Below, in pieces: positions 7,824 to 28,459 of a DNA stretch of 64,000 nt. The notes under the pieces were generated by a model, which was given only the letters and a program-made list of their open reading frames with translations, had not been told where the DNA came from and made no database searches. This stretch comes from an uncultured delta proteobacterium. Lineage in GTDB: Bacteria; Desulfobacterota; Syntrophia; Syntrophales; Smithellaceae. Each line of letters begins with the position of its first letter. The first letter of the stretch is position 1. A program made the position numbers and the translations under genes. The stretch spans positions 1,538 through 65,537 of the forward strand of contig CAIVQG010000022.1 in assembly GCA_903907985.1 (NCBI GenBank). The letters are read 5' to 3'.

Positions 7824-8000
7824 AACACCTATTAGGATAATTCGAATATTTATCGGTGGATGTATTTAGCGAAATAACAGAAAACTGTAAAGACAAACTT
7901 ACTGCCGGGCTGGAAATCTATTTATTTTATTCAGAAATGGAATAAGTTGAAAAGTAAGCTGTTAAATGATAGTGACTCGTGAAGCCTCTCCCGGAGAGTA

Positions 8001-8399
8001 ATGGTTATGCAATTGCCGCGATCACCAAGAGAAGAAAAACATGATACTCTATGTGAAGAGTTATTAAGAGAACGGGCAGCGGTGCTGGGCCGCGCAGGCA
8101 TGGCCGTAGAAGATGCCCTTGCTGAATTGACAAAATTAGATAACGAAATTAAAACAAAAAAAGAACAACTGAAATTATTGAAGCTTCGGGAGCAATGTCC
8201 TCATAGTCTGAATGAGCAACAGGCAGCCGTCGAAGAAATTAATGCGAAAATAGATCAATTCAACGCAGTTCGCAAGAAAGCTCAACTGAAATATTATTAT
8301 CTCATTGTCACCCGCGAAGCACTGGGTTTAAGGCGGCATGATATGATTAAGGAAATATACATAATTCCGGTAAAAAAGAAAAAGATACAGGATTTTTGA
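8001..8399 (+). CDS. hypothetical coiled-coil protein
   Basis: 132-aa ORF, Lys/Glu-rich heptad-like region. Stop overlaps the pcm start (ATGA-type overlap at 8396). Confidence 0.4.
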   Translation: MVMQLPRSPREEKHDTLCEELLRERAAVLGRAGMAVEDALAELTKLDNEIKTKKEQLKLLKLREQCPHSLNEQQAAVEEINAKIDQFNAVRKKAQLKYYYLIVTREALGLRRHDMIKEIYIIPVKKKKIQDF

Positions 8400-12127: not shown

Positions 12128-13315
12128 ATGAAAACAGTGGCAATTATACCTGCCGGTGGCGCCGGCCGTAGATTAAAATCCGGGATAGCCAAGCAATATC
12201 AGCAGTTAGAGAAGCTGCCGGTATTAGTGCATGCACTCAAAGTATTGGAGCAGACAGCGGTTATCAATGAAATAATTCTGGTTGTTCCGGAATCTGACAT
12301 AGAATTTGTCCGGAAAGAGTTTGTAATAAAAAACGATTTGAAAAAAGTGGCAAAGATTATTGCCGGTGGCACCGAGCGGCAGGATTCAGTGAGAAACGGC
12401 CTCGCTGCTATTGACAATCAATGTGATATTGTCCTGGTTCATGATGGAGTGAGACCTTTCGTTACGTCGGAAATGATCAGCCGGGTTGTTGAAGTTGCCT
12501 GCGAGTGTCAGGCTGTTGCGGTTGGAGTTCCGCCTAAAGATACGATCAAGGAAACGCAGAATGATGATCTTGTAGTGAAAACAGTGCCGCGGCAGAATTT
12601 ATGGCTTGTCCAAACTCCGCAGGCTTTTACTTTTGCCGTCTTGAAAGAGGCCTATGAGGCGGCTTATCAGAATGATTATTACGGCACTGATGATGCATCT
12701 TTAGTTGAGCGAATCGGCGTAAGAGTTAAGATGATAGCCGGTTCCTATGAAAATATTAAAATTACAACCCCGGAAGATTTAATCATTGCGGAAGCTTTGC
12801 TAAAAAACAAATTTGGGGGAGAAATGCAAATTCGCACCGGTTTTGGTTATGACAGTCACCGCTTTGCCGGGGGAAGAAAACTTATTCTTGGTGGTATTGA
12901 TATTCCTCATGATCAGGGCCTGCAGGGGCATTCCGATGCCGATGCCTTGATTCATGCTGTTTGTGATGCGATTTTGGGGGCGGTGGGCGCGGGTGATATC
13001 GGCCGGCACTTTCCCGATACCGATCCGGCCTACAAAGGTATTTCCAGTATGATTCTTCTGGAACGTGTGCGAGAAATGATCATGGCGAAATATTTTTGCA
13101 TCATTAATATCGATGCTTCGATTATCATGGAGAAGCCGAAACTGGCTCCCTTTGCCGGTGAGATTGCCGCAAATCTTGCAAAAGCTTTAAATCTGTCTGC
13201 TGCCGCTGTCAATGTTAAAGCCAAAACAAATGAGGGCATGGGGTTTGTGGGCAGGAAGGAAGGTGTGGTTGTCTTTGCGGTGGCCACAGTAATGGAAAGG
13301 AAAAATAATGGCTGA
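12128..13315 (+). CDS. ispDF: bifunctional MEP cytidylyltransferase / MEcPP synthase
   Basis: IspD N-terminus AIIPAGGAGRRL..VLVHDGVRPF. IspF C-terminus GFGYDSHRF..GHSDADALIHA..GDIGRHFPDTDP. Confidence 0.95.
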   Translation: MKTVAIIPAGGAGRRLKSGIAKQYQQLEKLPVLVHALKVLEQTAVINEIILVVPESDIEFVRKEFVIKNDLKKVAKIIAGGTERQDSVRNGLAAIDNQCDIVLVHDGVRPFVTSEMISRVVEVACECQAVAVGVPPKDTIKETQNDDLVVKTVPRQNLWLVQTPQAFTFAVLKEAYEAAYQNDYYGTDDASLVERIGVRVKMIAGSYENIKITTPEDLIIAEALLKNKFGGEMQIRTGFGYDSHRFAGGRKLILGGIDIPHDQGLQGHSDADALIHAVCDAILGAVGAGDIGRHFPDTDPAYKGISSMILLERVREMIMAKYFCIINIDASIIMEKPKLAPFAGEIAANLAKALNLSAAAVNVKAKTNEGMGFVGRKEGVVVFAVATVMERKNNG

Positions 13316-14744
13316 TAAGCCCAGAGTAAGATTTGCGCCATCACCGACGGGAGAATTGCATGTTGGTAATGCGCGCACAGCCCTGTTTAATTGGATGTTT
13401 GCCCGCCATCATGGCGGTGATTTTATCTTGCGCATCGAAGATACTGATGAAACTCGCAGCGCGCTTTCATACCAGGTAAATTTGCTCAATGACTTAACTT
13501 GGCTAGGTCTGGATTGGGACGAAGGACCGCAAAAAGAGGGAGCTTACGGCCCTTATAAACAAAGTGAGCGGCTCGATATCTACGCGCGCCATTTGCAGCA
13601 GCTTGAGTCCGCCGATCTGGTTTATCCCTGCTATTGTACGGAGGAAGAACTCGAAGAAGAGAGGCAGGCATTAATCTTGAGCAAGCGTATGCCCCGCTAT
13701 ATGGGCAAATGCCGTCAGCTTACGCGGGATGAGAGAAAACAAAAAGAAGATGCAGGCAGAAAGCCGTCATTCCGTTTTAAAGTTCCTGATGAAACATTTC
13801 AGTTTGCCGATTTAATCCGCGGGGCGATGAAGTTTGAAGGCACGGCCATTGGCGATTTTATCATTGTCCGTTCCAACGGCATGCCCGCCTACAATTTTGC
13901 GGTAGTTATTGACGATCACCTCATGGGCATCACGCATGTTATCCGCGGTGAAGATCATTTGTCCAATACGGCATTGCAAATCATGCTCTACAAAGCTTTC
14001 GGTTTTGTGCCGCCAACTTTTGCGCATCATTGCCTGATCCTGGGTAAAGATCGAGCCAAGTTAAGCAAACGCCATGGGTCGGTTTCTGTCGGCGAATTCC
14101 GCAAACAGGGTATTTTACCCGAAGCGCTGATGAATTACCTGGGACTGCTGGGCAGCTCTTTTACCGAAGGACGCGAAGTATTATCCCGTGAGGAAATGAT
14201 GGCCGCTTTTTCATTAGATCGCGCATCCAAAAGCGGCGCAATATTTGATGAAGAGAAACTGCACTGGCTCAACGCCATTTACATTCGTAATTGTCCTACG
14301 GAAAATTTAGTTTCGCGGCTGCAGCCTTTTTTAGAGCAGGCGGGTTATTCCACTGATGCTCTCGATCCGGTATTGCTCTATGGGGTTGTTGATTTGATTA
14401 AGAATGATTTGACGACACTTTCCGCCATCGGTAACCATATCAGCTTTTTCTTCGATGATGAGTATGAAATCACCGCCGAGGCCAGACAAATACTGGAAAA
14501 GGAAAGTGCCCTTCGTGTTTTAAAGACTTTTGCTGAATATCTGAAAAACAGCGCGGAAGCCGTACAGGAAATTTACCCCGCGGCCATAAAACATCTTAAA
14601 GAAAAAACCGGTGTCAAAGGCAAAGATTTATTTATGCCTATTCGCGCCGCTCTCACCGGCCGTAATCATGGCCCGGAACTCGATCGAGTGTTTGCGATAC
14701 TGGGTAAGAATGCTGCTTTAAAAAGGCTGAACCCTTTTGTTTGA
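13308..14744 (+). CDS. gltX: glutamate--tRNA ligase
   Basis: RFAPSPTGELHVGNARTALFNW (HIGH region) and KLSKRHG (KMSKS). Overlaps the ispDF stop. Confidence 0.95.
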   Translation: MADKPRVRFAPSPTGELHVGNARTALFNWMFARHHGGDFILRIEDTDETRSALSYQVNLLNDLTWLGLDWDEGPQKEGAYGPYKQSERLDIYARHLQQLESADLVYPCYCTEEELEEERQALILSKRMPRYMGKCRQLTRDERKQKEDAGRKPSFRFKVPDETFQFADLIRGAMKFEGTAIGDFIIVRSNGMPAYNFAVVIDDHLMGITHVIRGEDHLSNTALQIMLYKAFGFVPPTFAHHCLILGKDRAKLSKRHGSVSVGEFRKQGILPEALMNYLGLLGSSFTEGREVLSREEMMAAFSLDRASKSGAIFDEEKLHWLNAIYIRNCPTENLVSRLQPFLEQAGYSTDALDPVLLYGVVDLIKNDLTTLSAIGNHISFFFDDEYEITAEARQILEKESALRVLKTFAEYLKNSAEAVQEIYPAAIKHLKEKTGVKGKDLFMPIRAALTGRNHGPELDRVFAILGKNAALKRLNPFV

Positions 14745-14757
14745 GAAGTAGGTTGTT

Positions 14758-14989
14758 ATGAAAGAAGCAGCAAAGCTCGCTTTATGTGGTCTGCCTGATC
14801 TTTTCCCTGATCAAATGGTATATAATTCCTCTCTTGTCCTTTGTTTTTTTATGTTTACACCCGGGAAATCAAAGAAGCGCGCCGGAGTCAGGACTGGAAC
14901 GCGGTACTGGCCGGGTTGACGATTTTCGGCGTTGATTTCTTTAGCGAGACCTGGAACGGCTGGATCCTGCATTTTACCGGGCGCTCCGC
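14758..14989 (+). pseudogene. decayed duplicate of the 5' end of the membrane-protein gene at 25517
   Basis: 232 nt alignable to 25517-25746, roughly 85-90% identity by eye. Two 1-nt insertions break the frame; ORF 14841-15032 carries the in-frame remainder YVYTREIKEARRS.DWNAVLAG.TIFGVDFF.ETWNGWILHFTGRSA. Homology stops abruptly at 14989. Confidence 0.7.
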
Positions 14990-15004
14990 ATCAACATTGC
15001 CTCT

Positions 15005-15682
15005 TTATTTTTGCGCCTTGACGATTACGTAAGGACAGGTTCCTATATTCTGCATCTGAATATTTTTAAATCCCGCCGCTTTGAAAAAAGCAACGATTTC
15101 CTGTTGCGAATAGCTTTCACCGAAAATTATATGGCGCAATCCCCAGGAGAGAAGGAGATTCCAGAGGTACCATGCCTTGAAGCGCGCCATGAATCGTCTT
15201 AAGGCCTCGTCCGACACCTCTTTGTCCGTTTCTGAGATAACCGCCCAGCCTCCTGGTGCGAGAACACGTCTCATCTCGGATACGCCTTTCTGAGGATCCG
15301 GCCAGTGCTTGATGGAACCGACACTAACGACGGCAGCGAAGTGATCTTCTATGAAGGGTATCTCCATGGCATTTCCCCGCTGGTAACGGCAGTTCCCGAC
15401 ATCCATTTTCTTTCTTAGCCGTTCTGCTGCCCGGATCTGCATAGGCGAAAAATCTATCCCCACGACGGATGTCATGGGGAAGTGCGCTGCCAATTGCAGT
15501 GCCATGTATCCTCGGCCGGTTCCGATGTCAAGAATTTGCGAATCCGTGTCAACATCGATATTCAAAGAGATATGATCGTAGAGTTCAAAAATGGCGTTAT
15601 ATATCTGCCGATTGTAGATCGGTCCGAACATGTCCCAAAGCCATCGGGCATCTCTTGCTTTAACGAGGAGCTTCTTGAACAT
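15005..15682 (-). CDS. class I SAM-dependent methyltransferase
   Basis: ILDIGTGRGYMALQLA, VVGIDFSPMQI and VVSVGSIKHW motifs. Confidence 0.75.
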   Translation of the reverse strand: MFKKLLVKARDARWLWDMFGPIYNRQIYNAIFELYDHISLNIDVDTDSQILDIGTGRGYMALQLAAHFPMTSVVGIDFSPMQIRAAERLRKKMDVGNCRYQRGNAMEIPFIEDHFAAVVSVGSIKHWPDPQKGVSEMRRVLAPGGWAVISETDKEVSDEALRRFMARFKAWYLWNLLLSWGLRHIIFGESYSQQEIVAFFKAAGFKNIQMQNIGTCPYVIVKAQK

Positions 15683-16327
15683 TGATAATCCCTATTCCAT
15701 CAAGTTCTAATACAAGATACTCAATCATCAGCGCCATGATGATCCCCATGATGACGGGTGTTGCCACGGAAACCATTGTATCCCAAGAGAATGGTCTCCC
15801 AAAATGGATCATCTGTCTTTCAGTCCGCATCTGAACCGCACAAGAGGAGACGCTAGCGATTTATAGCCGCAATGCCTTCGTAAATATCCCCGATCGGCGG
15901 TGCTACCATGAGTGCCTCGACGTCGACTAACAGCTGCAAAATTTTTAATAAGACATTGCTTCAGCATGTTTGAAATATAGGAAGTCTGGCCTTGTATGTC
16001 AAGAAAATCTTGACCATAAGATGTGGGTTGTTGCATAGATGACAGGGTTGAAGGCATATTGCATCGTCCGTCTTTTTGAGAAATCCGTTTATCTTGTGGC
16101 TGAGTTATCTAAAAAATAAGTGTTTTTTACAGAATTCAGGCAGACCCTTCCAGCACGTCTCGTTTTCACAATGCGTTAGGACTGAATGTGTTTATTCCAA
16201 GTGTATTCTGGGTCGCCGTAGATAGTATCAGCGTGTTCGTTCCGGGGCGCTCCCTGCGGGCTTCCGCAACATGTCCCCGCATGACGCCTGGGTGCTGTAA
16301 CGCACCAGATTTTCCATTGCTGTTTTG

Positions 16328-16522
16328 TCATTGGGTGATATATGATTGCCGCAGAAGAAGTTGAAGCCGGAATGTTTTCACGCAGACAAAACCATTGTGC
16401 AAATCTCCCCCGTATCGGGGTCCGGGGCAGGCTGCATTCAGATAACTGTAGATCACCTGCTCGACATAAAGCCGCCGGAATCCATACTGCCGTGAGAATT
16501 GTTCATCATATGTCTGGACGAA
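16328..16522 (-). pseudogene. possible remnant of an IS91-family-type transposase N-terminal (zinc-binding) region
   Basis: The minus-strand frame reads FVQTYDEQFSRQYGFRRLYVEQVIYSYLNAACPGPRYGGDLHNGFVCVKTF. This resembles the F..Y...YG.LR...V...L.CG.L..GF segment of that family as I recall it, but the Cys ligands are lost and there is no start. The surrounding 15.7-16.6 kb has no intact ORF. Confidence 0.25.
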
Positions 16523-16649
16523 GGTTACAGCGGGGGCATTCCTATCGAGAGGATATAAATTGCATCAAACATCATTCGTTACTCAATTGTCTTTTTTTCG
16601 GTAATAGTATAAGGACATGGACGAAGGTAACGATATAGGCGTATAGATT

Positions 16650-17477
16650 ATGACGAATTGTCCTGAAGATAAATTCATTCATATTGACGGTTTGCGTCTT
16701 CATTACCTGGAGTGGGGCAATGGGCATCCGGTAACCATGCTTTTGCTACACGGCATTGGCAATGACGCCCATGTTTGGGATCATTTTGCCCAGAATGTTG
16801 CGAACCGAATCAGAATCATCGCACTGGATCAAAGAGGTCACGGACTGAGTGACTGGCCGATGCCGCCTGCTTACCGCTGCGAAGACTACGTGGCCGATGT
16901 TGATAAATTAGTCTATGCTCTTCAATTGAATGAGCTAATTCTGATGGGACATTCTATGGGGGCTTTGCATGCAATCAATTATGCCGCCATGCAACCGGGA
17001 AAAGTGGCCTGCCTCATTCATGCCGATATTGAACCATGCCCACCCGACTGGAACAAAAAATATCTCCTCAACCTCTATGAAAATTTACCGCACTTCTATG
17101 AATCTATTCACGACTACGTTCAAGAGGCGCAAAAAAACAGTCCCTATGCGGATGAGGCATTGCTTTACCGCATTGCCTCATCCGCCCTTGAGGAGGGGAA
17201 AGACGGCAAGTTGAGATCTCGATTCGACCGGGAGGTTCTGCTTCACTTCGATCGGTACGATCAACGCCCATACCTCAGGGACATTCGGTGTCCATCCCTC
17301 ATCATTCGTGGTAAAGAAAGCCGCGTAATGCGGCATGAAATTGCTAAGGAAATGAGTGAGATTATCCATAAAGGAAGCTTTGCAGAAATACCTAAAGCAA
17401 CCCATCCTGTGCACTTGGACAATCCCGTTGAGTTTCTGAGGGTAGTATCGGAATTTTTGCAGTCGATATTCCATTGA
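16650..17477 (+). CDS. alpha/beta hydrolase
   Basis: LLLHGIGNDAHVWDHF, nucleophile elbow GHSMGA, and C-terminal ATHPVHLDNP. Confidence 0.8.
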   Translation: MTNCPEDKFIHIDGLRLHYLEWGNGHPVTMLLLHGIGNDAHVWDHFAQNVANRIRIIALDQRGHGLSDWPMPPAYRCEDYVADVDKLVYALQLNELILMGHSMGALHAINYAAMQPGKVACLIHADIEPCPPDWNKKYLLNLYENLPHFYESIHDYVQEAQKNSPYADEALLYRIASSALEEGKDGKLRSRFDREVLLHFDRYDQRPYLRDIRCPSLIIRGKESRVMRHEIAKEMSEIIHKGSFAEIPKATHPVHLDNPVEFLRVVSEFLQSIFH

Positions 17478-17542
17478 CATCCAAGCCTGTATTCCCTATA
17501 GTTCTCAATAAATATGCGTATGAGACCTTCATGGAGGAAAAT

Positions 17543-17869
17543 ATGGAGTTGATGGTCCGTAAAGAAGAAAACGCTGTTATAGTATCTGTAATCGGTTGGA
17601 TGGATGCCGTGGCGGCACCGCAGTTTGATAAACGGCTTGAGACACTTATGGAGGAAGGCGAAACACGCATCATTATCGATTTCAAAGACCTGGAATACAT
17701 AAGTAGCGCCGGCCTGCAGACAATCCTCGCCGCGGCAAAAAAAATGGAAGAGGTTAACGGCGAAATTGTGCTGTTGCATCTTAAAGATGCCGTGAAAGAG
17801 GTCTTTGAAATATCGGGATTTGATATGATATTTCGTGTTTTTGACGACCAGGATGCAGCTCTGGCCTGA
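17543..17869 (+). CDS. STAS-domain anti-sigma-factor antagonist (RsbV/SpoIIAA-like)
   Basis: IIDFKDLEYISSAGLQTILAAAKK (phosphorylatable Ser context). The ~109-aa size fits a start at 17543 (GGAGGA upstream). Alternative starts are 17531 or TTG 17474, which overlaps the hydrolase stop. Confidence 0.8.
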   Translation: MELMVRKEENAVIVSVIGWMDAVAAPQFDKRLETLMEEGETRIIIDFKDLEYISSAGLQTILAAAKKMEEVNGEIVLLHLKDAVKEVFEISGFDMIFRVFDDQDAALA

Positions 17870-17883
17870 TATTGATCTTATAA

Positions 17884-18348
17884 GTGGGCACTATGTTATC
17901 CATAAAACTAAAGGCGACCCTCGCCAACCTGGAAGAGTTTACTAATTCTGTCTTCGAGTGGCTCAGAAGCTATGATGTGTCACAAAAACAAATTATGTCG
18001 ATTGAACTGGCCCTGGAAGAGGCCCTGGTGAATGTTTGCCTCTATGCATATCAGGAGCGGACCGGCGATGTGGAAGTACGCTGCCTCTTCGTAGATGACG
18101 ATCGATTCCTGATTGAAATTATAGATTCCGGCATACCATTCGATGTCTGTACTCTGCCGACGCCTGATCTAAAGGCTTGCATTGCTGAACGTAAGATTGG
18201 TGGTTTGGGGGTCCATTTTATAAGAAAAATGGCAACTAGTATTGAATACCACAGAAAGGATGGATTTAACATCCTTTCTCTTACTTTTAAGGCGGTGCCC
18301 GACCGTGGGACGGGGATGGTGACATTGCGACATAATACAGGTAATTGA
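17884..18348 (+). CDS. anti-sigma regulatory Ser/Thr kinase (RsbW/SpoIIAB-like, HATPase_c)
   Basis: ELALEEALVNVCLYAY (N-box), EIIDSGIPFD, and GGLGVHFIRKMATSIEY. Start is GTG 17884 or ATG 17893. Confidence 0.8.
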   Translation: MGTMLSIKLKATLANLEEFTNSVFEWLRSYDVSQKQIMSIELALEEALVNVCLYAYQERTGDVEVRCLFVDDDRFLIEIIDSGIPFDVCTLPTPDLKACIAERKIGGLGVHFIRKMATSIEYHRKDGFNILSLTFKAVPDRGTGMVTLRHNTGN

Positions 18349-18386
18349 TGTTTGTTTGATACATCTAATCCTTTTGGGACAACGTT

Positions 18387-19343
18387 ATGAATACTGATGA
18401 TACTAAGACAAAGATCAGGGTTGAGCAATACTTGCGGGCGTCCATCCTCAACGATGTAGTTGAGCTGGAAAAACGTGTCTGGAAAAGGGAAGGTTACCGT
18501 GAAGTAAACGCCCCCATGCTCTACTTTGAACTGGCCTATATCACGAACGGACTTGTTCTGACTGCCTTCGACGATGGAATTTACGGTATGGAGGAACGAA
18601 AACAGATGGCCCTTGAAGACCCATGGTACGGGGGGGATCATCCCATCGCCTTTCTCGTCTGCTTTGCCGACTTTGATCATAACGGTCCCTTCTGGTATGG
18701 TGCAAGAATGGGCGTGGATCAGCGTTACCAAGACAAAAACATTGGAGAAGCGATGGTTAGTAAACTCTATACTTGCGCGCAGGAACGGCGCATTTCACGC
18801 ATTCGCTGGACCTACGATCCCCTGCAAGCCAGGAACGGGCACATCTATCTCCGCAGGATGGGCGGGCTTGTAAAAGAAATCGGTTTCAACTACTACAGCG
18901 CCGTATTTACCAACGACCAATTCAACCGGGGTATTTCCACGGACCGCTTTGTCGTAGAATGGGACATCAATTCAGAACGAGTTACCGAACGGATGCAAAA
19001 AGGGAAAGCTCCTGTTTTTGACGAATCACTGATTACGCAGGATAATACAATCAATGAGATCGATCTGGATGAACTAGGACTGGAACATCATGGCGAGAAA
19101 TGGCTTTTCCATGCAAAGGTATCACCCATATTCATTGAAATTCCATATGCCCAGGATCGCCTGCTCCAGGCAGACCGTACTAAGGCCCAGGCATTGCGGG
19201 ACAAGTGCCGCGCGCTGTTCATGCATTACTTGGCCAGGGGCTATGTCGTAAACGATTTTGTCCTGAAGAAAATGCCTGATGGCCGGCGCAGGGCATTCTA
19301 CCGGCTTGATCAGGAGGCGCAATGGCAAACATTGAGTCTATAA
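18387..19343 (+). CDS. GNAT-fold protein (COG3375-like predicted acetyltransferase)
   Basis: RWTYDPLQARNGHIYLRRMGGLVKEIGFNYYS..NRGISTDRFVVEW resembles the TFDPL..RNA.FN..KLGA...Y..FYG...SDR..V.W signature of that family. This is from memory. Confidence 0.5.
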   Translation: MNTDDTKTKIRVEQYLRASILNDVVELEKRVWKREGYREVNAPMLYFELAYITNGLVLTAFDDGIYGMEERKQMALEDPWYGGDHPIAFLVCFADFDHNGPFWYGARMGVDQRYQDKNIGEAMVSKLYTCAQERRISRIRWTYDPLQARNGHIYLRRMGGLVKEIGFNYYSAVFTNDQFNRGISTDRFVVEWDINSERVTERMQKGKAPVFDESLITQDNTINEIDLDELGLEHHGEKWLFHAKVSPIFIEIPYAQDRLLQADRTKAQALRDKCRALFMHYLARGYVVNDFVLKKMPDGRRRAFYRLDQEAQWQTLSL

Positions 19344-21037
19344 ACAGACCGCCAACGGAGCAAAAAGCCACTGCACGACTCAAAATCCGCACGAAGTTTC
19401 TTCTTGTTTTCCTCGGCATTTCCGTGATTCCACTAATGCTATTCGGATATATTGCCTTCCGGGACATTCGGGAAGTGAGCCGTTATGTCCTAAAGAGCAG
19501 TGATTCCATTGAGGTAAGCGCTTCAAGCGACAGCGCTTTGGCACTGGAAGCCTTAGGCGCGGAAATCTTGCGGCAGAAGGCGGTCGACGTAGCTTTGCAA
19601 TGCCGGATCTTCATCGACGCCCATCCAGGCATGTCAACTAAAGACCTTCAAAAAAGCAGAGAATTTCAAAAAATCGCCGTGCAACCCGTCGGTGAAACAG
19701 GATATACTATCGTCTACGAGAAGAAGACGGGTATCATGAGGTTCCACATCAATCCCGCCCTGATCGATTTCAACATGCGTAACTGGAAGGATAAACTGCC
19801 CGATTTCTGGGCCCTCTTTGAACGATCACTCGACGGTACGCCTGGAGGCGGTTATTACGACTGGCAGGACAGCGACAAAAAAATACGTAAGAAGTTTATG
19901 TATATCGCTTCCGTTGAAGGAACAAATTTCATGGTTTCGGCCACTACTTACATTGATGAGTTCTCTCGGCCGGCTAAGGCCATCCGCAAACAGATCGCGG
20001 AATCCACACGAAACATCAATGAACAGATCCAAGAGGGTATCAGCGGTATCCGCATTACCTTTCTGATGATCCTTCTGATTATGACGATGACTGTTGCGGT
20101 AATCTCCTTGAATCTTGCCCGCATGATCACCAAACCGATCATTGCTCTGAGTAGAGGTGTCAGAGCCTTGGGAAGAGGTGATATGGAGTATCGTGTGGAA
20201 GTGAAAACGGGAGATGAATTGGAATCCCTTGCCAAATCATTTAACCGTATGACCACGGACCTGAAGATTCATATGGAAGAACTTCAATGTACAACGGCCG
20301 AAAAAGAGGGACTGTTAAAAGAGTTGGAAATCGCCCGTGGCATCCAGCAGCGTCTACTTCCAAAAGTTGCCCCGGCCATGAAGGATATAGAGATTGCCGC
20401 AAACAACATACCGGCGCGGGAAGTTGGGGGAGATTTTTATGATTTCGTTCCGGTGACGGAAGACACTTGGGGGCTGGTCATCGCTGATGTGTCCGGTAAA
20501 GGCATGCCTGCCGCCATGTTAATGGGCCTGTCCAGGACCATCGTCAGAGCCAGCGCCACGGGAAATCCCGACGTTGCCAATGTCATCAAACAGGCCAATG
20601 AATTGATCTGCCGTGATTCCACCTCCGGTATGTTTGTGACCCTCTTTTACGGTGTTATGAATGCACACGAGAAACGGTTCCGTTATGTCAATGCCGGCCA
20701 TAACCATCCCCTATGGTATCGGAAAGGGACAGACGAAATCATTCCCCTGTGCTCGAAAGGGATAGCTCTCGGAGTCATGCGGCCGATCGACCTTAAAGAA
20801 GAGGAAATCACTTTATCCAGCGGGGATGTTCTGGTGCTTTATACGGATGGCATCACGGAGGCGGTCAATGAAAACATGATCCCCTTCGGCAAGGAAAGGC
20901 TTATTGATTTGATTCGCAATATTCACACAATGCCGGCCAAGGAGATCATCAACGCGATTCAGCGTGAGGTTTCCGAGTTTGCCGGCCATCAACCCCAGTT
21001 CGATGACATCACGCTCATGGTCGTGAAAGTTGCCTGA
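19322..21037 (+). CDS. membrane sensor PP2C phosphatase (periplasmic sensor - HAMP - SpoIIE/RsbU-like)
   Basis: Two TM segments flank a ~210-aa extracytoplasmic region. HAMP region PIIALSRGVRALGRGDMEYRVEV..LAKSFNRMT. PP2C motifs GGDFYDF, VIADVSGKG, VNAGHNHP and LYTDGITEA. GGAGG RBS. Overlaps the upstream gene by 22 nt. Confidence 0.85.
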   Translation: MANIESINRPPTEQKATARLKIRTKFLLVFLGISVIPLMLFGYIAFRDIREVSRYVLKSSDSIEVSASSDSALALEALGAEILRQKAVDVALQCRIFIDAHPGMSTKDLQKSREFQKIAVQPVGETGYTIVYEKKTGIMRFHINPALIDFNMRNWKDKLPDFWALFERSLDGTPGGGYYDWQDSDKKIRKKFMYIASVEGTNFMVSATTYIDEFSRPAKAIRKQIAESTRNINEQIQEGISGIRITFLMILLIMTMTVAVISLNLARMITKPIIALSRGVRALGRGDMEYRVEVKTGDELESLAKSFNRMTTDLKIHMEELQCTTAEKEGLLKELEIARGIQQRLLPKVAPAMKDIEIAANNIPAREVGGDFYDFVPVTEDTWGLVIADVSGKGMPAAMLMGLSRTIVRASATGNPDVANVIKQANELICRDSTSGMFVTLFYGVMNAHEKRFRYVNAGHNHPLWYRKGTDEIIPLCSKGIALGVMRPIDLKEEEITLSSGDVLVLYTDGITEAVNENMIPFGKERLIDLIRNIHTMPAKEIINAIQREVSEFAGHQPQFDDITLMVVKVA

Positions 21038-21159
21038 TGTTTCTCAAATGGTAATTTAATTGATCTTCTTCATTGAACAGCAGATCACTGATGAGTTCAT
21101 AAGGTTCTTTCCTCATTTCCATGGCCGCAGTCTTTGCATCCCCGATCAGGTCGAAGACT

Positions 21160-22200
21160 CAAGGGGTCAAATCTCTTCTTGATTCATCTCATGGATTGGT
21201 TTATTGAAGTCACATGGCAAGACCTTTACGAATCCAATATCCCGATGCCTGGTATCATGTCATGAACCGGGGTCGAAGCAAGGCGCAGATATTTTCTTCG
21301 CGGGAAGATTACTCTGCGTTTATTGAACTGCTGAAAGACGCATCTTCTTTGTGGAAGGTTCAGTTTGCTGCCTACTGCCTGATGTCAAATCATTATCATC
21401 TGCTTGTTCAAACACCGGAGGCCAATCTATCCCGCTGCATGCGTCATATCAACGGGCTTTACACACAATATTTCAACAGAACAAATAAAAGCGACGGACA
21501 GTTATTTCGAGGGCGCTTTAAGACCATTGTCATTGATGGTGGCAGTTACTTGCTGGAACTGATGCGATATATCCACCGCAATCCTCTACATGCCGGACCG
21601 GTAAATCGACTTGAAGATTATTCATGGAGTTCACACAAAGCATATATTGCCAAAGGGAACGAAGGCAACTGGTTGCAGAAAGATTTTGTTTTGGCCATGC
21701 TGGAAGATAATAAAAGCAAAAGACGGCAGGCCTATATTGATTTTATGAAACAAGAAGAACCGGAAACGCTAAGAGCCTTATATGAAAAAAAGAAGTTGCC
21801 ATTGTTGTTGGGCGCAAATGATTTCATAGATGACATAAAGCAGAAGTATTTTGATAAGACGATCATAAAAGAAATCCCGCAAGTCAAGGAACTATTCCTG
21901 GATAAATCCCGGATAGAAAAGGCCGTATGCCGCTTTTATCAGATTGAAGTTGATGATCTGTTAAAATCACGGTGTGGCAACTATAACGAGGCCCGCAACG
22001 TGGCAATATGTCTCCTGCGGAAACATACTGGAGCATCTTTACAGAATATTAGTTCCAACTTCGAGATGAACAGTTACAGCAGTGTTGGCATTGTTATTAT
22101 GCGAATCAAACAGGCGATAGCCCGGGACAAAAAGCCACAACAAAGGATAACAGCAGTCGAGAGAGTGCTAACATGAGTCAAGAAGAGACTCGACCCCTTG
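21160..22200 (+). mobile_element. RAYT/IS200-like unit: HUH transposase gene flanked by ~30-bp REP-like inverted repeats
   Basis: 21160-21189 CAAGGGGTCAAATCTCTTCTTGATTCATCT versus the reverse complement of 22171-22200, CAAGGGGTCGAGTCTCTTCTTGACTCATGT. The 26-nt core matches at 23 positions; the flanking 4 nt are weaker. The right repeat contains the tnp stop codon. Confidence 0.5.
21214..22176 (+). CDS. Y1 HUH transposase (REP-associated tyrosine transposase-like) with C-terminal DnaA-domain-IV-like HTH
   Basis: YHVMNRG, HUH motif SNHYHLLV and Tyr motif YIHRNP. C-terminus NEARNVAICLLRKHTGASLQNISSNF..SSVG resembles the DnaA C-terminal HTH. Confidence 0.8.
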   Translation: MARPLRIQYPDAWYHVMNRGRSKAQIFSSREDYSAFIELLKDASSLWKVQFAAYCLMSNHYHLLVQTPEANLSRCMRHINGLYTQYFNRTNKSDGQLFRGRFKTIVIDGGSYLLELMRYIHRNPLHAGPVNRLEDYSWSSHKAYIAKGNEGNWLQKDFVLAMLEDNKSKRRQAYIDFMKQEEPETLRALYEKKKLPLLLGANDFIDDIKQKYFDKTIIKEIPQVKELFLDKSRIEKAVCRFYQIEVDDLLKSRCGNYNEARNVAICLLRKHTGASLQNISSNFEMNSYSSVGIVIMRIKQAIARDKKPQQRITAVERVLT

Positions 22201-22277
22201 TTTTGCTTGAGTGAGATGTTTTTTAACTTATTACGAGTTTGTCAATATTGACTTTGTCCCCGAATCACGGAGGGTGC

Positions 22278-23354
22278 ATGGCAAGAGAAGATGATGGATT
22301 GCCGTTTTTACTGCGTTATGAAAATGTAGCCCGTTACGAGGAAGGTGACGTATTGATCTTGGACCGGCAAAAGTATCCTGCCCGGGAAGAGTTTGTCCGC
22401 TGCACCGATTATCGGCAGGTCACCAAAGCAATCGCCGACATGGTGACTCAGAGCGGCGGCCCCTGGCTCGCGGCTGCCTTGGGAATGGTTAGTGCAGTCA
22501 GGAGTGTACATCATCTCCCTGTCGAGCAGGCGAAGGAAGAATTGCAGCGTGCTGCTGCCATTCTGAGCAGTGCCCGTCCCACAACGGCTGCAGGAATGAA
22601 GTCTCATATTGAGCGCATACTGAAAACGGCACAAAACGCCCTTGATCGGGGAGAGGATGCCGAGGCGGTAACCCTTGCTTACGTCCGGCAGAATCTTGAA
22701 AAGCGCTATCGGCAATCCCGGAGGATGGCTGCATATGCCGTCGATCTCCTCCCGGAAGAAGTCTCGGTCCTGACCCAGTGTTATGCAGAAACGCTTATCG
22801 GTTTCATCCTCCTTGTCGCTCAGGAGAAAGGCAAGAAGATATCCCTGATCTGTCCGGAGACACGACCATACCTGCAGGGAGCAAGGCTCACCGCCAGTGT
22901 GGCCCATGATATGGGGATCCCGGTTACAGTCATTACGGACAACATGCCCGCCTATATTCTGTCAAAAGGGATGGCCCACGTATTCATTTCCGCCGCAGAC
23001 GTAATCACCCTTGATGGATATGTGTTCAACAAGATTGGCACGTTTCAGATTGCCTTGGCGGCCCATTACCATGGCGTACCGTATTATGCATTGGGCACGC
23101 CGTCACTGGATATCCCCGATATTTCCGCTGTCGCAATAGAAGAACGGGACCCTGAAGAAACCGTCCACGTTATGGGAATTCGGACAGCAAAAGAGGGGGT
23201 GCCCGGTTTTTATCCTGCATTTGATATCACGCCTCCCAATTTAGTTAGCGCTATAATAACACCGAAAGGGGTCTTTTCTCCCAGGGAACTGAAAAACCAT
23301 TTCGGGGACGCAAATACATCGGAATCATCAGTCATCACGCCGGGAAAGGAATAG
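22278..23354 (+). CDS. eIF-2B-like sugar-phosphate isomerase (MtnA / 5-(methylthio or deoxy)ribose-1-phosphate isomerase family, divergent)
   Basis: ETRPYLQGARLTA, SAADVITLDGYVFNKIGT, VPYYALG, IEERDPEE and PAFDITPPNLVSAIITPKGV. N-terminal TQSGGPW replaces the canonical VRGAPAI. GGAGGG RBS before ATG 22278. Confidence 0.7.
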   Translation: MAREDDGLPFLLRYENVARYEEGDVLILDRQKYPAREEFVRCTDYRQVTKAIADMVTQSGGPWLAAALGMVSAVRSVHHLPVEQAKEELQRAAAILSSARPTTAAGMKSHIERILKTAQNALDRGEDAEAVTLAYVRQNLEKRYRQSRRMAAYAVDLLPEEVSVLTQCYAETLIGFILLVAQEKGKKISLICPETRPYLQGARLTASVAHDMGIPVTVITDNMPAYILSKGMAHVFISAADVITLDGYVFNKIGTFQIALAAHYHGVPYYALGTPSLDIPDISAVAIEERDPEETVHVMGIRTAKEGVPGFYPAFDITPPNLVSAIITPKGVFSPRELKNHFGDANTSESSVITPGKE

Positions 23355-23357
23355 CCG

Positions 23358-24008
23358 ATGCTATACGAGGAACTTCGAAAATCACTGCATAAAACGGTTA
23401 TTGATCTTTATCAGAAAGATTTAATCCAGTTGAATTCGGGTAATGTAAGCGCCCGCGCTTCCGCAGAACACCTGGCGATAACACCGACAGGCATACCGTA
23501 TGACCGTATGACTCCGGAGGACATAGTCATTATCGACTTCGGCGGAGCTTTTGTGGAGGGCCTTTACGCGCCCTCCTCCGAAACGCCCATGCACATCGCC
23601 GTGTATAAGAACATGCCGAAAACGGCAGCAGTGGTGCACAGTCATTCCCCCTATGCCCTCGCCTTTGCAACAGTGGGAAAAAGCATTCCCATAATCTGTA
23701 CGGAAGGTCTGGCTGTGCGTGGCCCTGTGCCCGTCGCCGAATACGCCTGCCCCGGCACGGAAGCCCAGGGCCGGGTTGCCGTTCAGGCAATGAAAGGACC
23801 TCCATCTGTGACTGCAACCCTTTTGAAAAACCATGGAGTACTCTCCGCAGGGAGCAGCCTGGCACAGGCATACTCAACGGCCTGCCGGATTGAAATGGCC
23901 GCGAAGGTTTACTTTCTGGCCCTTCAGATCGGTACCCCCGACATTTTAACGGAAAAGCAGATCAATGAAATCCGAAACGTGTATTCTTCAAAAAAACCAT
24001 CCCCGTAA
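23358..24008 (+). CDS. class II aldolase/adducin-family protein (FucA/MtnB/Ald2-like)
   Basis: SGNVSAR, PSSETPMHIAVY, VVHSHSPYA and LLKNHGVLS. Confidence 0.8.
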   Translation: MLYEELRKSLHKTVIDLYQKDLIQLNSGNVSARASAEHLAITPTGIPYDRMTPEDIVIIDFGGAFVEGLYAPSSETPMHIAVYKNMPKTAAVVHSHSPYALAFATVGKSIPIICTEGLAVRGPVPVAEYACPGTEAQGRVAVQAMKGPPSVTATLLKNHGVLSAGSSLAQAYSTACRIEMAAKVYFLALQIGTPDILTEKQINEIRNVYSSKKPSP

Positions 24009-24059
24009 TTTTTTTGATAAGAACTTGCTTTCATGGGAAGAAGAAACTAAAGGGGTCAA

Positions 24060-24159
24060 GTCTCTTCTTGGCTCATCTTTAGGGTTGTTATAGAATAATT
24101 TGCATAGATGAAACAAGGTCAGGCATCTGAACAACATGGCAAGACCTTTCGAGTTGTAG
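24060..24159 (+). repeat. third REP-like copy plus 7-codon stump of a second RAYT gene
   Basis: 24060-24088 AAGGGGTCAAGTCTCTTCTTGGCTCATCT matches the left repeat at 21161. 24136-24159 ATGGCAAGACCTTTCGAGTTGTAG matches the first 14 nt of the tnp gene (ATGGCAAGACCTTT) and then stops. Confidence 0.55.
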
Positions 24160-24320
24160 CCCTCTAAATTCATCGACCCTGACAATTTGGAAAGGGAGGT
24201 ATCAAACGGATGAATCTTTACATGATCTAGTAATACAAAAGTTCTGCGTTGACAATAGAACGATGAAAACGTCGCCGTATTTTTTTGACTATTTGATACC
24301 GGTGGTATATAATCGCTATT

Positions 24321-25442
24321 ATGAATATAAAGCGCCATGTTTATAGCCAGTTAGTCGATGACCTCCGACGGCCTGAAGTATCCATAATTCTTGGGTCCAG
24401 GCAAGTAGGCAAAACATTTCTGTTTAAAGAACTGGAAAGTGATGCCCGGGCCAGAGGATTGCGCACCCGTTATTATAATCTTGAACTACCCTACGATCTT
24501 CTGGCGTTTAATAAAGACGACAACGAACTGTTGCGCATGTTGACCACTGATTTGGATATAGTGTTTATTGATGAATTTCATTATTTGCCGAACGCATCCA
24601 AACTATTCAAGTCCATCTTTGATGCCGGTTCAAAAACAAAGATTGTTGCCACAGGGTCGTCAGCGATTGAGATGCACAAGCACCTGAAAGAAAGCCTTGC
24701 CGGCAGGCGTCTTGCTGTCCGGTTGATGCCGCTTTCCTTTGCCGAATATGCGCAACAGGGAAAAGATTGCCGGGGTTGATAAATAATGACGCGCCGGAGG
24801 AAAAAATCAGGCTTTTAAACGAAATCCTGGAAACATACATTCAAAAAGACATTAAATCATTAATCAGAGAAGAGAATATCAGGGCGTTTAACAGCTTGCT
24901 CTATTTACTGGCACAGCGTCAGGGTTCCTTGATTTCTCTGGGGGGGGGATTGCCAATGATATCGGGCTGACCGCGCGTACGCTGGAGCGGCACATTTCTA
25001 TTATGGAACAAACGTATATCTTGTATTCCGTTTTTCCTACGCAAGAAATATCGGCAATGAACTTAAAAAATCAAGAAAATTATATTTCTATGATCTGGGA
25101 ATAAGAAATGCTTTTTTACGTGATTTTAGCATGCCGGCGGAAAGAAGCGATATCGGTGTAATCCATGAATCTTTCGCGGCGCTTCAGCTTATCTCGCGCA
25201 TAAAACCTAATATGGAATTGAAATTCTGGCGTAACAAGGCCGGGCAGAAAATAGATTTTGTCCTGCTGAAAAACAGACAGCCGTTGCTGATTGAAATCAA
25301 AACGACAATTCATGAACCGAAGGTGCCGCAGGCAATTAAAATATTTATCAAAAATTATCCCGAGACGGCAGGGACGATTATTTATTCAACAGAACTTAAC
25401 GCGGATGTCGAATATTTATGTAAACAGGTAGCTTTCAGATAG
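24321..25442 (+). pseudogene. AAA ATPase (AAA_14 + DUF4143 type), multiply frameshifted
   Basis: P-loop GSRQVGKT and Walker B VFIDEF. The protein continues across at least three frame changes: near 24770, in the G9 tract 24940-24948, and near the T5 run at about 25035. Manual reading gives ..LANDIGLTARTLERHISIMEQTYILYSV|SYARNIGNELKKSRKLYFYDLGIRNAFL... Confidence 0.75.
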
Positions 25443-25516
25443 CTGGAATCATTATGTGAAGGCGAACTAATTGCAAATTGGTGAGCCGTATTTTAATATT
25501 TAATAAGGATGTTTTT

Positions 25517-26170
25517 ATGACAGAAGCAACAAAGCTCGCTTTATGTGGTTTGCGTGATCTTTCCCTGATCAAATGGTATATTATCCCTCTTTTGTCCTTA
25601 GTTTTTTATGTTTACACCAGGGAAATCAAAGAAGCGCGACGGAGTGGAGACTGGAACGCGGTACTGGCCGGTATGACGATTTTCGGCGTTGATTTTTTTA
25701 ACGAGACCTGGAACGGCTGGATTCTGCATTTTACCGGGCGCTCCGCTTTCTGGACAACTCCCGGTGATACCGCCTTGCGGACAATGGTTGGCTGGAATAT
25801 CGAGATCATGTTCATGTTTCTGCTGCTGGGCATTATCTACTATCACACTCTCTCGGATAGCAAGAAAGAGAAAATATTAGGCGTTCCCGAAAAATGGTTC
25901 TGGGCTATTGGCTACACTATCTTTTGCGTTTTTGTTGAATGTCTTTTAAACATCGGCGGACATCTGGTCTGGGAATATCCCATCTGGTATTTGTCCTTTA
26001 AAGGCATTTGGCTGATATTCCTGATCGGTTACTTCCACTTTTTCTGTTTTGCCATTTTAGTCATCAGCCTGAAAACAATGAAAGCTAAACTGGCGACCGT
26101 GAGTATTATTTATGCCGTGCCGTTGATAATGAACATCCTTGCCTTCGGTTTCTGGGGCTGGAGATATTAA
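25517..26170 (+). CDS. polytopic membrane protein, unknown function
   Basis: About 6 hydrophobic helices. ATG 25517 corresponds to the start of the duplicated fragment at 14758. Confidence 0.6.
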   Translation: MTEATKLALCGLRDLSLIKWYIIPLLSLVFYVYTREIKEARRSGDWNAVLAGMTIFGVDFFNETWNGWILHFTGRSAFWTTPGDTALRTMVGWNIEIMFMFLLLGIIYYHTLSDSKKEKILGVPEKWFWAIGYTIFCVFVECLLNIGGHLVWEYPIWYLSFKGIWLIFLIGYFHFFCFAILVISLKTMKAKLATVSIIYAVPLIMNILAFGFWGWRY

Positions 26171-26188: not shown

Positions 26189-26243
26189 CACTATCTTTGT
26201 TGGTGGAGCCGGCAAAGATAGTGGGCAATGCCGGCTTTCTTTG
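26189..26243. terminator. bidirectional terminator region between convergent genes
   Basis: An 11-bp stem CACTATCTTTG/CAAAGATAGTG (26189-26223) overlaps stem AGCCGGC/GCCGGCT (26207-26236). T-rich tracts follow on both strands. Confidence 0.5.
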
Positions 26244-26247
26244 CGAG

Positions 26248-28242
26248 CTATTTTCTTAAAATAAATCTGCCCGCAAGCTTATCTTGTGGTGGATGCAAGT
26301 TAGGGCTCTGCTCAACGTTTAATGTTCTTGCCTCATCTTCAACTAAAGGCTTTATATACTCATAAATCTCCGCTATTGTTCTTTTCTCGTCTTGTAATGC
26401 CTTTAGAAAATAATAGGTAAATATACCATGCCTTTTTTCAGGAGATGAAGTGCTGATCTGACCTCCTTGCGTTGCGGTAAGCACTGCCATATTGCGTGAG
26501 ACGAAGGACGCATCTTTCACCATTACCAGAGGCCGTGCTCCTTTTGCTAAAACGCTCCTGCCGCCAGTGCCGGAAAAACAAGAATCAAGAAGAATGATGG
26601 TCTCATGTGTCTTCAAAACACCGAGTTTTTCGTAGAGCCTTTTCAAAGAATAGCCGGACGTGGCAAGATAATTGGGATCTCCGTCAAAAGGAACAATATA
26701 TGCTTCACCGGTTTTGGGTTCTGGTGCTCCATGTCCTGAATAATAAAAGATGATTCTACTATCACTCTTTACGTGGTTGGGGAGCCATCCCTCTATTGCT
26801 GTCTCGATTCTTGACTTTGTTGCTCGTTCATTGAGAATAAGAGCAATATTCCGTTCCGCAAAACCGAGCGCCTTTAGATATTCTTTCACAAGTTCTGCAT
26901 CGCTTACGGAATGATCCGATTTTGGTATTCCCTGATAATTTTCTATTCCGATGACGATGGCGATGTCGTTTGCCCGCGGTGCCATTTTAAAATCGGGAAT
27001 CCTGTTAATGTTTCCAATATCTACTTTCGTGGTAACAGGTACTGGTGCGGAACTTCGAGCAACTGACGCAGCAGCCCCGATACTGCGAAGGGCGAAACGT
27101 TCATTCGTGACATCATCGACGAGGACTGTATCCGTCAGGCGGATATTTTCGGCATCATGGTATTTTAATTTCCCTTCCACATGTATTTGATTTTTATGGC
27201 CCTGCATTGCCATCGCTTTTTCCCGCGGAACACTTATAAATACACTCTTTCCGATAAGAATTGCCGTAAAGCCTCTCTTGTCCGCATCGTAAGCGCCCAG
27301 CACAATCGGAGTTGTATAATCCTGCTGCCATTTGCTCATACGCTCTTCATATTCTCCAGTCGCTTCGAATTCCCCTTTCGTGAACGTATTTTTAACGGAC
27401 AACATGCGGGCATCATAGATAGTAATGATATTATTTTTTTTATCAATATTCAGCTCCCAGCCTTTACTGCTAAGATGTGTGGAACTCTTTTCATGTTTGG
27501 TCCGATCAGCGGCTGCGGAAGGACGGCTTTCTTCCCATGCTGAAATATCATGAAAAAACCTGTTTTGCATCCATGAGATGACCAGCGATTTCCCGTAGAA
27601 ATTTTCAATAAATCCATCGAACGAATCAAGCAGTTGCCAGGATGAAGTATCATAAAGAAGTACTTTATTTGCAGCACTGAACATAGATGGGTGATAGCGA
27701 TTCACCGCCATTAACTTTCCGTTGGGACTAAATTTCCCCAGCCATCCATGGAATTGCCGGATTGTTTCCCCGGAAGACGTATTTAAAATTGTAACCGTGG
27801 CGTCATTATTGGTTACTTCCGTGTAATTGGATATGCTGACCATTTTGCAACCGGTATCAAAGGAGATCTGTCCACCCCCGTAACTTTTAATGACTTGCTT
27901 TGTTTTCAAGTTGAAAAAGGTTAATAAACTATTGCCGTCAACAACCATAATGTCTTGATTTGGGCTGAAACAATAAGACGAGCCGCTTATTTTCTTTACT
28001 TCCTGCCATGTTACCGGTTCATAGACAATGGTGTTCCCCTTTTCATTTAGCACCAGCACCTCCCCTTGCGGGCTGAACGATGCAGAGAAACCATTCATAG
28101 TTTTAACTACACTGGCGTTTGAAATGGCTAAGATCACATCTTGGGCTTTCTGATCCTGGCCATTCTGAATTGCCCAGGCAGACGATGCGGCAAAAGTCAT
28201 CATGGCTATTAGAAATACACAAATTCTGTTCATGACTTTCAT
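26248..28242 (-). CDS. exported caspase-like (peptidase C14) protein with N-terminal beta-propeller-like repeats
   Basis: Signal peptide ..VFLIAMMTFAASSAWA. Repeated FSPxG/FSPNG strands. C-terminal caspase fold IAIVIGIENY..IIFYYSGHG (His)..IILLDSCFSG (Cys). Start ambiguous (28275, 28242 or 28233). Confidence 0.85.
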   Translation of the reverse strand: MKVMNRICVFLIAMMTFAASSAWAIQNGQDQKAQDVILAISNASVVKTMNGFSASFSPQGEVLVLNEKGNTIVYEPVTWQEVKKISGSSYCFSPNQDIMVVDGNSLLTFFNLKTKQVIKSYGGGQISFDTGCKMVSISNYTEVTNNDATVTILNTSSGETIRQFHGWLGKFSPNGKLMAVNRYHPSMFSAANKVLLYDTSSWQLLDSFDGFIENFYGKSLVISWMQNRFFHDISAWEESRPSAAADRTKHEKSSTHLSSKGWELNIDKKNNIITIYDARMLSVKNTFTKGEFEATGEYEERMSKWQQDYTTPIVLGAYDADKRGFTAILIGKSVFISVPREKAMAMQGHKNQIHVEGKLKYHDAENIRLTDTVLVDDVTNERFALRSIGAAASVARSSAPVPVTTKVDIGNINRIPDFKMAPRANDIAIVIGIENYQGIPKSDHSVSDAELVKEYLKALGFAERNIALILNERATKSRIETAIEGWLPNHVKSDSRIIFYYSGHGAPEPKTGEAYIVPFDGDPNYLATSGYSLKRLYEKLGVLKTHETIILLDSCFSGTGGRSVLAKGARPLVMVKDASFVSRNMAVLTATQGGQISTSSPEKRHGIFTYYFLKALQDEKRTIAEIYEYIKPLVEDEARTLNVEQSPNLHPPQDKLAGRFILRK

Positions 28243-28459
28243 CCTAAGAAATACAATGATCCTCAGTAACTCCATTTTGGAGATGGAATTATAATAAAGA
28301 AGGCCTTGTGCGTCAATTCAAAATGCAACCGACTAATGTATTTCTGAGAAGATGCCAAAGGGCAGGGGGAGCAATCGGCCAGAGACAATTTATTGCGCTT
28401 TGTTAACAGTTATTGTATGAAGTTATACCAATCTGATAGTCAAGGAGGGTTGTATATAG

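Follow-up and report, generated by a model that had tools for sequence, protein, structure and literature searches.

An orphan duplicate of a membrane-protein gene start in the variable interval behind gltX of an uncultured Smithella population

How did a 250-nt copy of the start of a membrane-protein gene come to lie directly behind gltX, separated by a block of about 10.5 kb from the intact gene to which it corresponds? The question is raised by a 64-kb stretch of contig CAIVQG010000022.1 (hereafter the window), which belongs to an uncultured Smithella (Syntrophales) population. In the window, the forward-strand gltX gene for glutamate-tRNA ligase (13308–14744; Pfam tRNA-synt_1c and Anticodon_2) is followed by this fragment, which we call the left copy (14740–14989, forward strand). 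The intact gene, named here Memb (25517–26170, forward strand), encodes a 217-amino-acid membrane protein, assigned to PF27271 (AF_1327) in a public precomputed annotation. The segment of it that corresponds to the fragment is the right copy (25499–25746, forward strand). According to the initial annotation, the geometry fits an element that had integrated into the 5' end of the gene and had supplied a replacement for it. Our analysis leads to a different reading: the left copy is most likely a dead, lineage-specific pseudogene fragment lying at a rearrangement joint, left by the remodeling of a hypervariable slot between gltX and Memb.

The duplicated gene start and its two junctions

Relatives were sampled at 84 loci around Memb homologs and 89 loci around gltX homologs, which were mapped to the window by tblastn and blastn and are designated below by L numbers. 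The duplication itself, first noticed in the initial annotation, is real. A nucleotide alignment of the two copies has 225 matches in 250 columns (90.0%), with 23 mismatches and 2 gaps (blastn E ~7e-92), and identity reaches 92.2% across 230 coding positions. The right copy consists of the ribosome-binding site and codons 1–77 of intact Memb, and the left copy is a pseudogenized version of the same segment. Homology begins 18–21 nt 5' of the ATG, so that it takes in the ribosome-binding site and directly adjoins the stop codon of gltX (14742–14744). As previously annotated, the frame of the left copy is broken by two single-nucleotide insertions; they are extra T's located in T runs at 14801 and 14844, owing to which the Memb reading frame passes through all three frames. 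The terminal 23 nt before the break are identical in the two copies, and homology then stops abruptly at 14989/25746, again as first described.

Both junctions of the left copy can be placed. On its right side, the break at 14989|14990 (junction J2) is exact: locus L184, the nearest methyltransferase relative available, shares the 3' flank of the adjacent methyltransferase gene up to ~14985–14990 and diverges beyond, and comparison with L184 and L176 together fixes the position. At J2, codon 77 of Memb meets the native 3' flanking sequence of the methyltransferase module over a microhomology of ~2 nt (GC); the joint is illegitimate. On the left side, the junction with gltX (J1) lies at ~14735–14744, exactly where the conserved gltX sequence ends. 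Homology of gltX with L167, L169, L171, and L173 ceases at window positions 14738–14747; synteny is lost inside the final gltX codons in all lineages, each of which has its own C-terminal residues.

The window derives from a metagenome-type assembly and the independent contigs show the left junction only, two circumstances that might be taken to favor an assembly artifact or a chance similarity. However, the succession of gltX, fragment, and methyltransferase was found in at least six independent metagenome contigs from different samples, with 98.9–100% identity. This recurrence is explained neither by chance nor by an artifact of assembly. In addition, the alignment score is far from what chance would give, and the two copies differ by 10% and hence could not have been confused by an assembler. 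We therefore regard this explanation as virtually excluded. The left copy is present in every contig of the species to which the window belongs, and the arrangement is fixed across its strains. Conversely, none of the 84 Memb and 89 gltX loci outside this species contains a Memb fragment.

The gltX–Memb interval in related genomes

The model of the initial annotation predicted an empty site, in which gltX directly precedes Memb. In the whole sample of relatives, no gltX gene directly neighbors an intact Memb. The two genes lie 9.4–10.8 kb apart in the closest genomes and are separated by other DNA, a block encoding Ppnp and a V-ATPase. Five states of the slot are distinguishable among genomes whose gltX is 85–89% identical to that of the window at the nucleotide level. 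L175 and L005, which represent one genome (100% identical over a 9.2-kb overlap), carry gltX, Ppnp, a V-type ATPase operon, two genes for repetitive extragenic palindrome (REP)-associated tyrosine transposases (RAYTs), and Memb, with 10.8 kb between the anchors. L173 and L006, which match each other, share this layout and have in addition an AAA_14 remnant immediately 5' of Memb. L169 and L003, joined by a 317-nt overlap of 100% identity and collinear against L173, show the order gltX, inverted V-ATPase block, AAA_14 remnant, Memb, and caspase/FGE gene, with a gap of 9.4 kb. The nearest gltX relatives, L167 and L168 (88.9% nucleotide identity), come from the same assembly as L004; in these, gltX is followed by a REP sequence, a decayed RAYT gene, and then unrelated genes. 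In L004, Memb is on a separate contig from the L167 gltX and is preceded by an intact AAA_14/DUF4143 gene (PDC-S01) and a DndH/HerA-like ATPase gene; this AAA_14/DUF4143 gene (7108–8451) is a paralog, 26% identical to that of the window. Finally, in L171 and L172, gltX is followed by 92 nt, a 104-nt remnant of a caspase gene, and the caspase/FGE gene, and Memb is missing.

The L171/L172 arrangement was considered as a possible empty site and rejected. Memb is gone, the caspase remnant has been kept, and the 92 nt bear no trace of Memb (score 12, compared with a background 95th percentile of 13). These loci are a deletion derivative and not a virgin attachment site. The caspase remnant is informative about the right side of the slot. 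In the window, Memb is followed by a reverse-strand gene combining a beta-propeller and a caspase domain (26248–28275; Pfam Peptidase_C14). L171 and L172 retain just its 104-nt 3' end (window 26241–26344), and in L003 and L004 it is absent, Memb running there directly into the caspase/FGE gene.

The upstream flank of the right copy bears on the question of an element-borne gene end. It comprises a broken AAA_14/DUF4143 ATPase gene and the upstream region native to Memb (24264–25498, forward strand; open reading frame [ORF] pieces at 24321–24779 and 25131–25442), recognized by Pfam and listed by PADLOC as candidate PDC-S01. In L003 (7669–7995) and L006 (9674–10000), window segments 24264–24508 and 25431–25516 are joined to each other, as an AAA_14 remnant, directly 5' of Memb. 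Both loci are without the block and without any left fragment. Since block-less relatives share this flank, the right copy is the orthologous copy in situ and was not brought by an element. The AAA gene itself is native to the position upstream of Memb.

Elements of the type of SXT/R391 at prfC would be expected to show a recombinase or its remnant, an empty site, a target-gene end borne by the element, a short att core, and behavior as a unit. The ~10.5-kb block was examined for these features. Consistent with what was first reported, there is no intact integrase: Pfam searches of all ORFs of at least 95 amino acids in 15.0–25.5 kb revealed no integrase, resolvase, or DDE domain, the only transposase-type gene being a RAYT. 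The initial annotation had listed a transposase-like remnant, at 15.7–16.6 kb. This could not be substantiated, since none of the ten open-frame stretches of at least 47 amino acids in 15.65–16.68 kb has a Pfam match at E≤5. The blastn search of a plasmid database with the 15.7–16.6 kb stretch and the Rfam search across 14–27 kb at E≤1 also gave no match. The window contains no tRNA or tmRNA gene that could have served as a target. In composition (GC content and tetranucleotides), the block is not an outlier, ranking 81 among 107 sliding 10.5-kb segments, and the strongest deviation of the window lies at 30–37.5 kb. The repeats extend over 250 nt at 90% identity, and an att core is not definable in them without an attP or attB sequence.

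Furthermore, the block is a mosaic and not one element, as its parts occur separately elsewhere: the methyltransferase gene is found alone in L176, L184, and L183, the RAYT remnant alone after gltX in L167, and the AAA remnant alone before Memb in L003 and L006. The likeness to SXT/R391 elements, which integrate at the 5' end of prfC (PMC2791158), is therefore one of geometry only, namely an insertion into a gene's 5' end that leaves the gene intact. These elements possess a tyrosine integrase acting on short, near-identical attP and attB sites and have a demonstrable empty site. Unlike them, the present locus has neither integrase nor empty site, its repeat is long and divergent, and the supposed replacement end has a chromosomal flank. 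Direct repeats bracketing about 10.5 kb of variable DNA and sharing their last 23 nt do recall a site-specific integrative element that had entered the 5' end of Memb beside gltX, supplied a new 5' end, and become immobilized after loss of its integrase. Given the chromosomal flank of the right copy in block-less relatives, the mosaic block, its ordinary composition, the missing recombinase and empty site, and the 250-nt repeat without a defined core, we judge this origin very improbable. The left copy is not an attachment site.

Part of the initial description nevertheless holds. The intervening DNA is accessory in the sense of being variable: positions 14990 to ~24263 do not stand between gltX and Memb in any relative. 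The sole stretch of this DNA that recurs at the slot elsewhere is the RAYT unit, found as a remnant directly after gltX in the sister species. The gltX–Memb slot is ancestral, with a content that turns over between close relatives; these harbor there a V-ATPase operon in either orientation, defense-candidate genes, or, in one lineage, nothing at all. The Ppnp and V-ATPase block is shared by three close lineages, one of which has it in inverted orientation (L173 11530–19468, L003 1–6849, and L169 9848–11252; also in L005, L006, and L175); no convincing inverted repeats that would explain the inversion were found in these relatives. Between L003 and L006 the block is 94% identical, compared with ~84% for gltX and 87% for Memb. 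This difference suggests that slot content has been exchanged laterally, independently of the flanks. In more distant Smithella (L094, L095, L096, L101, L146, and others), gltX is followed after 1.6–7 kb by homologs of genes at 50.4–54.0 kb of the window. At that scale, the whole interval 14745–50418 (35.7 kb, including the caspase/FGE and G8-domain genes) is thus variable.

The locus behaves as a flexible genomic island, or hotspot, between conserved anchors. Like flexible (replacement) islands, it has gltX on the left, Memb and its downstream genes on the right, and unrelated cargo between them in close relatives, and, as the V-ATPase block illustrates, the content moves independently of the flanks. 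It differs from a typical island in carrying, at the end opposite one of its anchor genes, a partial duplicate of that gene. The right anchor is itself unusual in its conservation. Memb shows 76–97% amino acid identity across metagenome-assembled genomes labeled Smithella, Desulfobacteraceae, Desulfomonilia, Leptospiraceae, and Spirochaetota. More than 2,400 homologs were found, and their genomic neighbors vary (e.g., hemerythrin and ZnuABC genes in L083–L086).

Age and origin of the left copy

We consider it probable that the left copy is a derived duplicate of the resident Memb start, generated within the lineage by a rearrangement of its own genome that was not site specific. Several observations converge on this reading: derived sites shared by the two copies, the flank of the right copy in L003 and L006, the structure of the slot in relatives, the position of J2, the native RAYT, the restriction of the fragment to one species, the plain composition of the block, and the lack of a recombinase. 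Over the 230 coding positions, the left and right copies are mutual nearest neighbors, at 92.2% compared with 88.7 and 89.1% to L003 and 86–88% to L004. They share five derived sites without counterpart in four outgroups. When the differences between them are polarized, the left copy has 8 private substitutions in addition to its 2 insertions and the right copy has 7 (six synonymous and one Leu-to-Met), 3 being ambiguous. Private changes in both copies indicate that the duplication is not recent. In agreement with this, contig L177, from another strain, carries a fragment identical to that of the window, so the duplication predates the divergence of the strains.

The path that we prefer has two steps and would produce the observed structure. 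Unequal or illegitimate exchange would first have duplicated in tandem a segment reaching from the methyltransferase through the AAA gene to codon 77 of Memb, creating J2. J1 would have arisen later, when everything between the stop codon of gltX and the ribosome-binding site of the upstream partial copy was deleted, and the stranded 250 nt would subsequently have acquired their 8 private substitutions and 2 frameshifts. Taken alone, this path is possible but somewhat doubtful. In a one-step variant, template switching during replication would have copied 250 nt of Memb into a pre-existing junction between gltX and the methyltransferase gene. It gives the same structure, and the sequence cannot separate it from the two-step path.

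Several points weigh against the derivation of the left copy from the resident gene. No intermediate genome was found, and the order and number of events are thus inferred. All five shared derived sites fall in nt 12–30, a hypervariable stretch encoding the N terminus, and across nt 31–230 all three pairwise comparisons among the left copy, the right copy, and L003 give 92%. With the sister signal confined to so short a stretch, age and polarity are soft, and gene conversion is possible. Moreover, the private changes of the left copy affect 3.5% of sites, which is below the expectation from synonymous change in the right copy (~12% of synonymous sites). This low decay calls for an extra assumption, for example a recombination patch in the right copy. 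The AAA gene is also awkward for simple vertical descent, as the copy of the window is broken but long, free of the 914-nt internal deletion that is identical in L003 and L006. Finally, a short match in the sister species hints at an older or recurrent joint between gltX and Memb.

The short match lies at L167 9860–9900 (also in L168), where a stretch of ~25 nt immediately behind gltX is similar to the start of the L004 Memb with its ribosome-binding site (empirical p ~0.002); a REP and the decayed RAYT gene come directly after it. A shared origin of J1 with L167 was considered on account of this suggestive likeness and set aside, because the limited decay of the left copy speaks against it. 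As for the right copy, its seven specific substitutions all lie in Memb nt 34–157 (window 25550–25673), and nt 158–332 contain no window-specific change. Judging from this distribution, a lineage outside the sample may have contributed the cluster as a short patch by recombination.

The main competitor invokes import by homology-facilitated illegitimate recombination (HFIR). Linear DNA of a very close relative, carrying the segment from the methyltransferase through the AAA gene to Memb, would have recombined by homology within Memb at its right end and illegitimately at codon 77 of the resident gene at its left end. The left copy would then be the resident 5' end and the right copy that of the donor, as in the geometry proposed in the initial annotation, but with no need of an integrase or att site. 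A separate deletion, earlier or later, would have brought the fragment beside gltX. This mechanism and analogous arrays of displaced fragments, in which pieces of resident genes are stranded, have been described (PMC5361080, PMC3240628). The orphan fragments of type VI secretion system effector/immunity and Rhs arrays (PMC5361080) offer a parallel in that here also a truncated resident gene is stranded beside new DNA and one joint is essentially without homology. HFIR arrays, however, strand 3' ends together with immunity genes and do so recurrently (PMC5361080), whereas we observe a single 5' fragment with no known donor.

Features of the locus speak for such an import. Slot contents do move between lineages, as attested by the V-ATPase block, and the minimal microhomology at J2 is like that of HFIR joints. 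The AAA gene of the window is longer than the deleted form of L003 and L006, and together with the intergenic flank it is unusually near to L006 (89% and 95%, compared with 83% and 88% to L003). The clustering of the synonymous changes specific to the right copy would also fit. On the other hand, the shared derived sites demand a donor closer than any sampled species, and none was identified. The left copy is no nearer to the sister species L004 (86.1%) than is the right copy (87.8%), the block's RAYT and AAA components are native to the slot, and a second event is still required for J1. A foreign 5' end, which would make Memb chimeric at codon 77, was also examined in this context and not retained. 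Site patterns hint at it, but most of the signal resides in nt 1–33, which are hypervariable; without them, the shift in phylogenetic signal around nt 230 is not significant. Overall, import by HFIR appears unlikely, and duplication within the genome explains the data at least as well.

A third origin, in which a complete second Memb paralog once stood after gltX and lost its 3' two-thirds, either through a deletion or when the methyltransferase module inserted, would also end in the observed structure. An old duplication is permitted by the roughly equal distances among the two copies and L003 in nt 31–230, and the possible remnant of a Memb start after gltX in L167 could be seen in the same light. 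Yet no relative has two Memb copies or any fragment of a second. Furthermore, with synonymous divergence (dS) to the sister species of 0.26–0.47, an old neutral fragment is expected to be far more decayed than the 8 substitutions in 230 nt observed. We consider this origin quite improbable. The derivation of the left copy from the resident Memb is thus the reading that we retain.

Gene content of the block and significance of the slot

The content of the block largely agrees with the initial list, which included a methyltransferase, a partner-switching set, a RAYT, an MtnA-like isomerase/aldolase pair, and a broken ATPase gene. A transposase-like remnant at 15.7–16.6 kb was the one member of this list for which the Pfam, Rfam, and plasmid searches gave no match. 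Next to J2 lies a module of ~750 nt (14990–15752) with a reverse-strand gene for an S-adenosylmethionine-dependent methyltransferase (15005–15682; Pfam Methyltransf_25/11). It is 93% identical in nucleotide sequence to L184 over window 14985–15735 and 88.6% to L176 over 15003–15752, the flanks being unrelated in both, so that the limits of the unit can be set from 53–70 nt upstream of the start codon to ~15 nt beyond the stop codon. At 88–93% nucleotide identity, the gene is found in contexts that are otherwise unrelated: with SpoU and Fe-ADH genes in L176 (430–1180), an ankyrin-caspase gene in L184 (163–914), and glycine-cleavage and lipoate genes in L183 (9994–10676). It is followed by ~0.9 kb (15753–16649) in which Pfam, Rfam, and plasmid-database searches detected no gene, RNA family, or recombinase remnant. 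This segment separates the divergent methyltransferase and hydrolase genes. It is 100% conserved between strains despite showing no similarity to relatives.

Five forward-strand genes assigned by Pfam follow: an alpha/beta hydrolase (16650–17477), a STAS protein (17474–17869), a HATPase_c_2 kinase (17884–18348), a GNAT-like gene (18387–19343), and a Cache-HAMP-SpoIIE phosphatase (19322–21037). Within this region (16650–21037), the STAS, HATPase_c_2, and Cache-HAMP-SpoIIE genes form a partner-switching signaling set. None of the 184 fetched relative loci contains a counterpart of the module from the hydrolase to the SpoIIE gene. The strain contig L177 is identical to the window across 14745–18348 but differs within the GNAT-like gene, over 18387–19190, at 41 of 804 positions (5.1%), a pattern suggestive of a sharply bounded tract of recombination inside the species.

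The RAYT unit occupies 21157–22208, with its gene at 21214–22176 on the forward strand. Such units are formed by REP-associated tyrosine transposases and REP sequences (PMC2817692, PMC3337134). The gene has a Y1_Tnp domain (Pfam 1.2e-12, above the cut-off; NCBIfam REP_Tyr_transpos 70.7 bits, below the 80-bit cut-off) and, as an extra C-terminal domain, a DnaA_C helix-turn-helix. It is flanked by inverted REP-like repeats (21157–21203 and 22170–22208; 28 nt, 89% identity). Three full copies are present within the window, the third (24041–24092) standing after the class II aldolase gene, and related cores were found in L005, L167, and L175. The core AAGGGGTCAAATCTCTTCTTG occurs at 21161, at 22179 (inverted), and at 24050. 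Between the second and third copies, which are mutually inverted, lies the forward-strand pair of Pfam-assigned genes for an MtnA-like isomerase (22239–23354) and a class II aldolase (23358–24008), resembling a two-gene cargo between REPs beside a RAYT; the third copy closes this unit (22239–24092).

In L167 and L168, the decayed RAYT ortholog after gltX is 89–90% identical in nucleotide sequence to window 21381–22189, and the synteny breaks coincide with both REPs. As L167 shows, the RAYT unit is native to the slot between gltX and Memb. It resembles known RAYT/REP systems in having a Y1 transposase-like gene between inverted, palindrome-containing repeats of 28–39 nt, and several synteny breakpoints of the relatives are located at REP repeats. 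All three copies in the window lie inside the block, and none is found at the boundaries of the duplicated segment (14989/25746 and 14740/25499). A role of this system in the formation of the left copy is thus conjectural.

A more speculative view, which we hold with low confidence, is that the interval is a dedicated exchange slot in which Smithella lineages swap cargo blocks by recombination anchored in the unusually conserved Memb. If so, the V-type ATPase operon, the partner-switching sensor module, and the PDC-S01 and DndH-like defense candidates would be its cargo, the left copy would be the footprint of a one-sided HFIR import, and the Memb-start remnant of L167 would be a second, independent footprint. 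As it stands, the locus is a new example of a familiar kind of genome plasticity and implies no new molecular system. It also calls for caution, as a direct repeat of a gene end around variable DNA can mimic an integration scar, and synteny with close relatives reveals here the relic of a rearrangement in a flexible slot. For the biology of these uncultured syntrophic bacteria, the locus reveals a hotspot beside gltX in which, among genomes whose gltX genes are ~85–89% identical to that of the window, an energy-conserving V-ATPase operon, a signaling module, and defense candidates replace one another.

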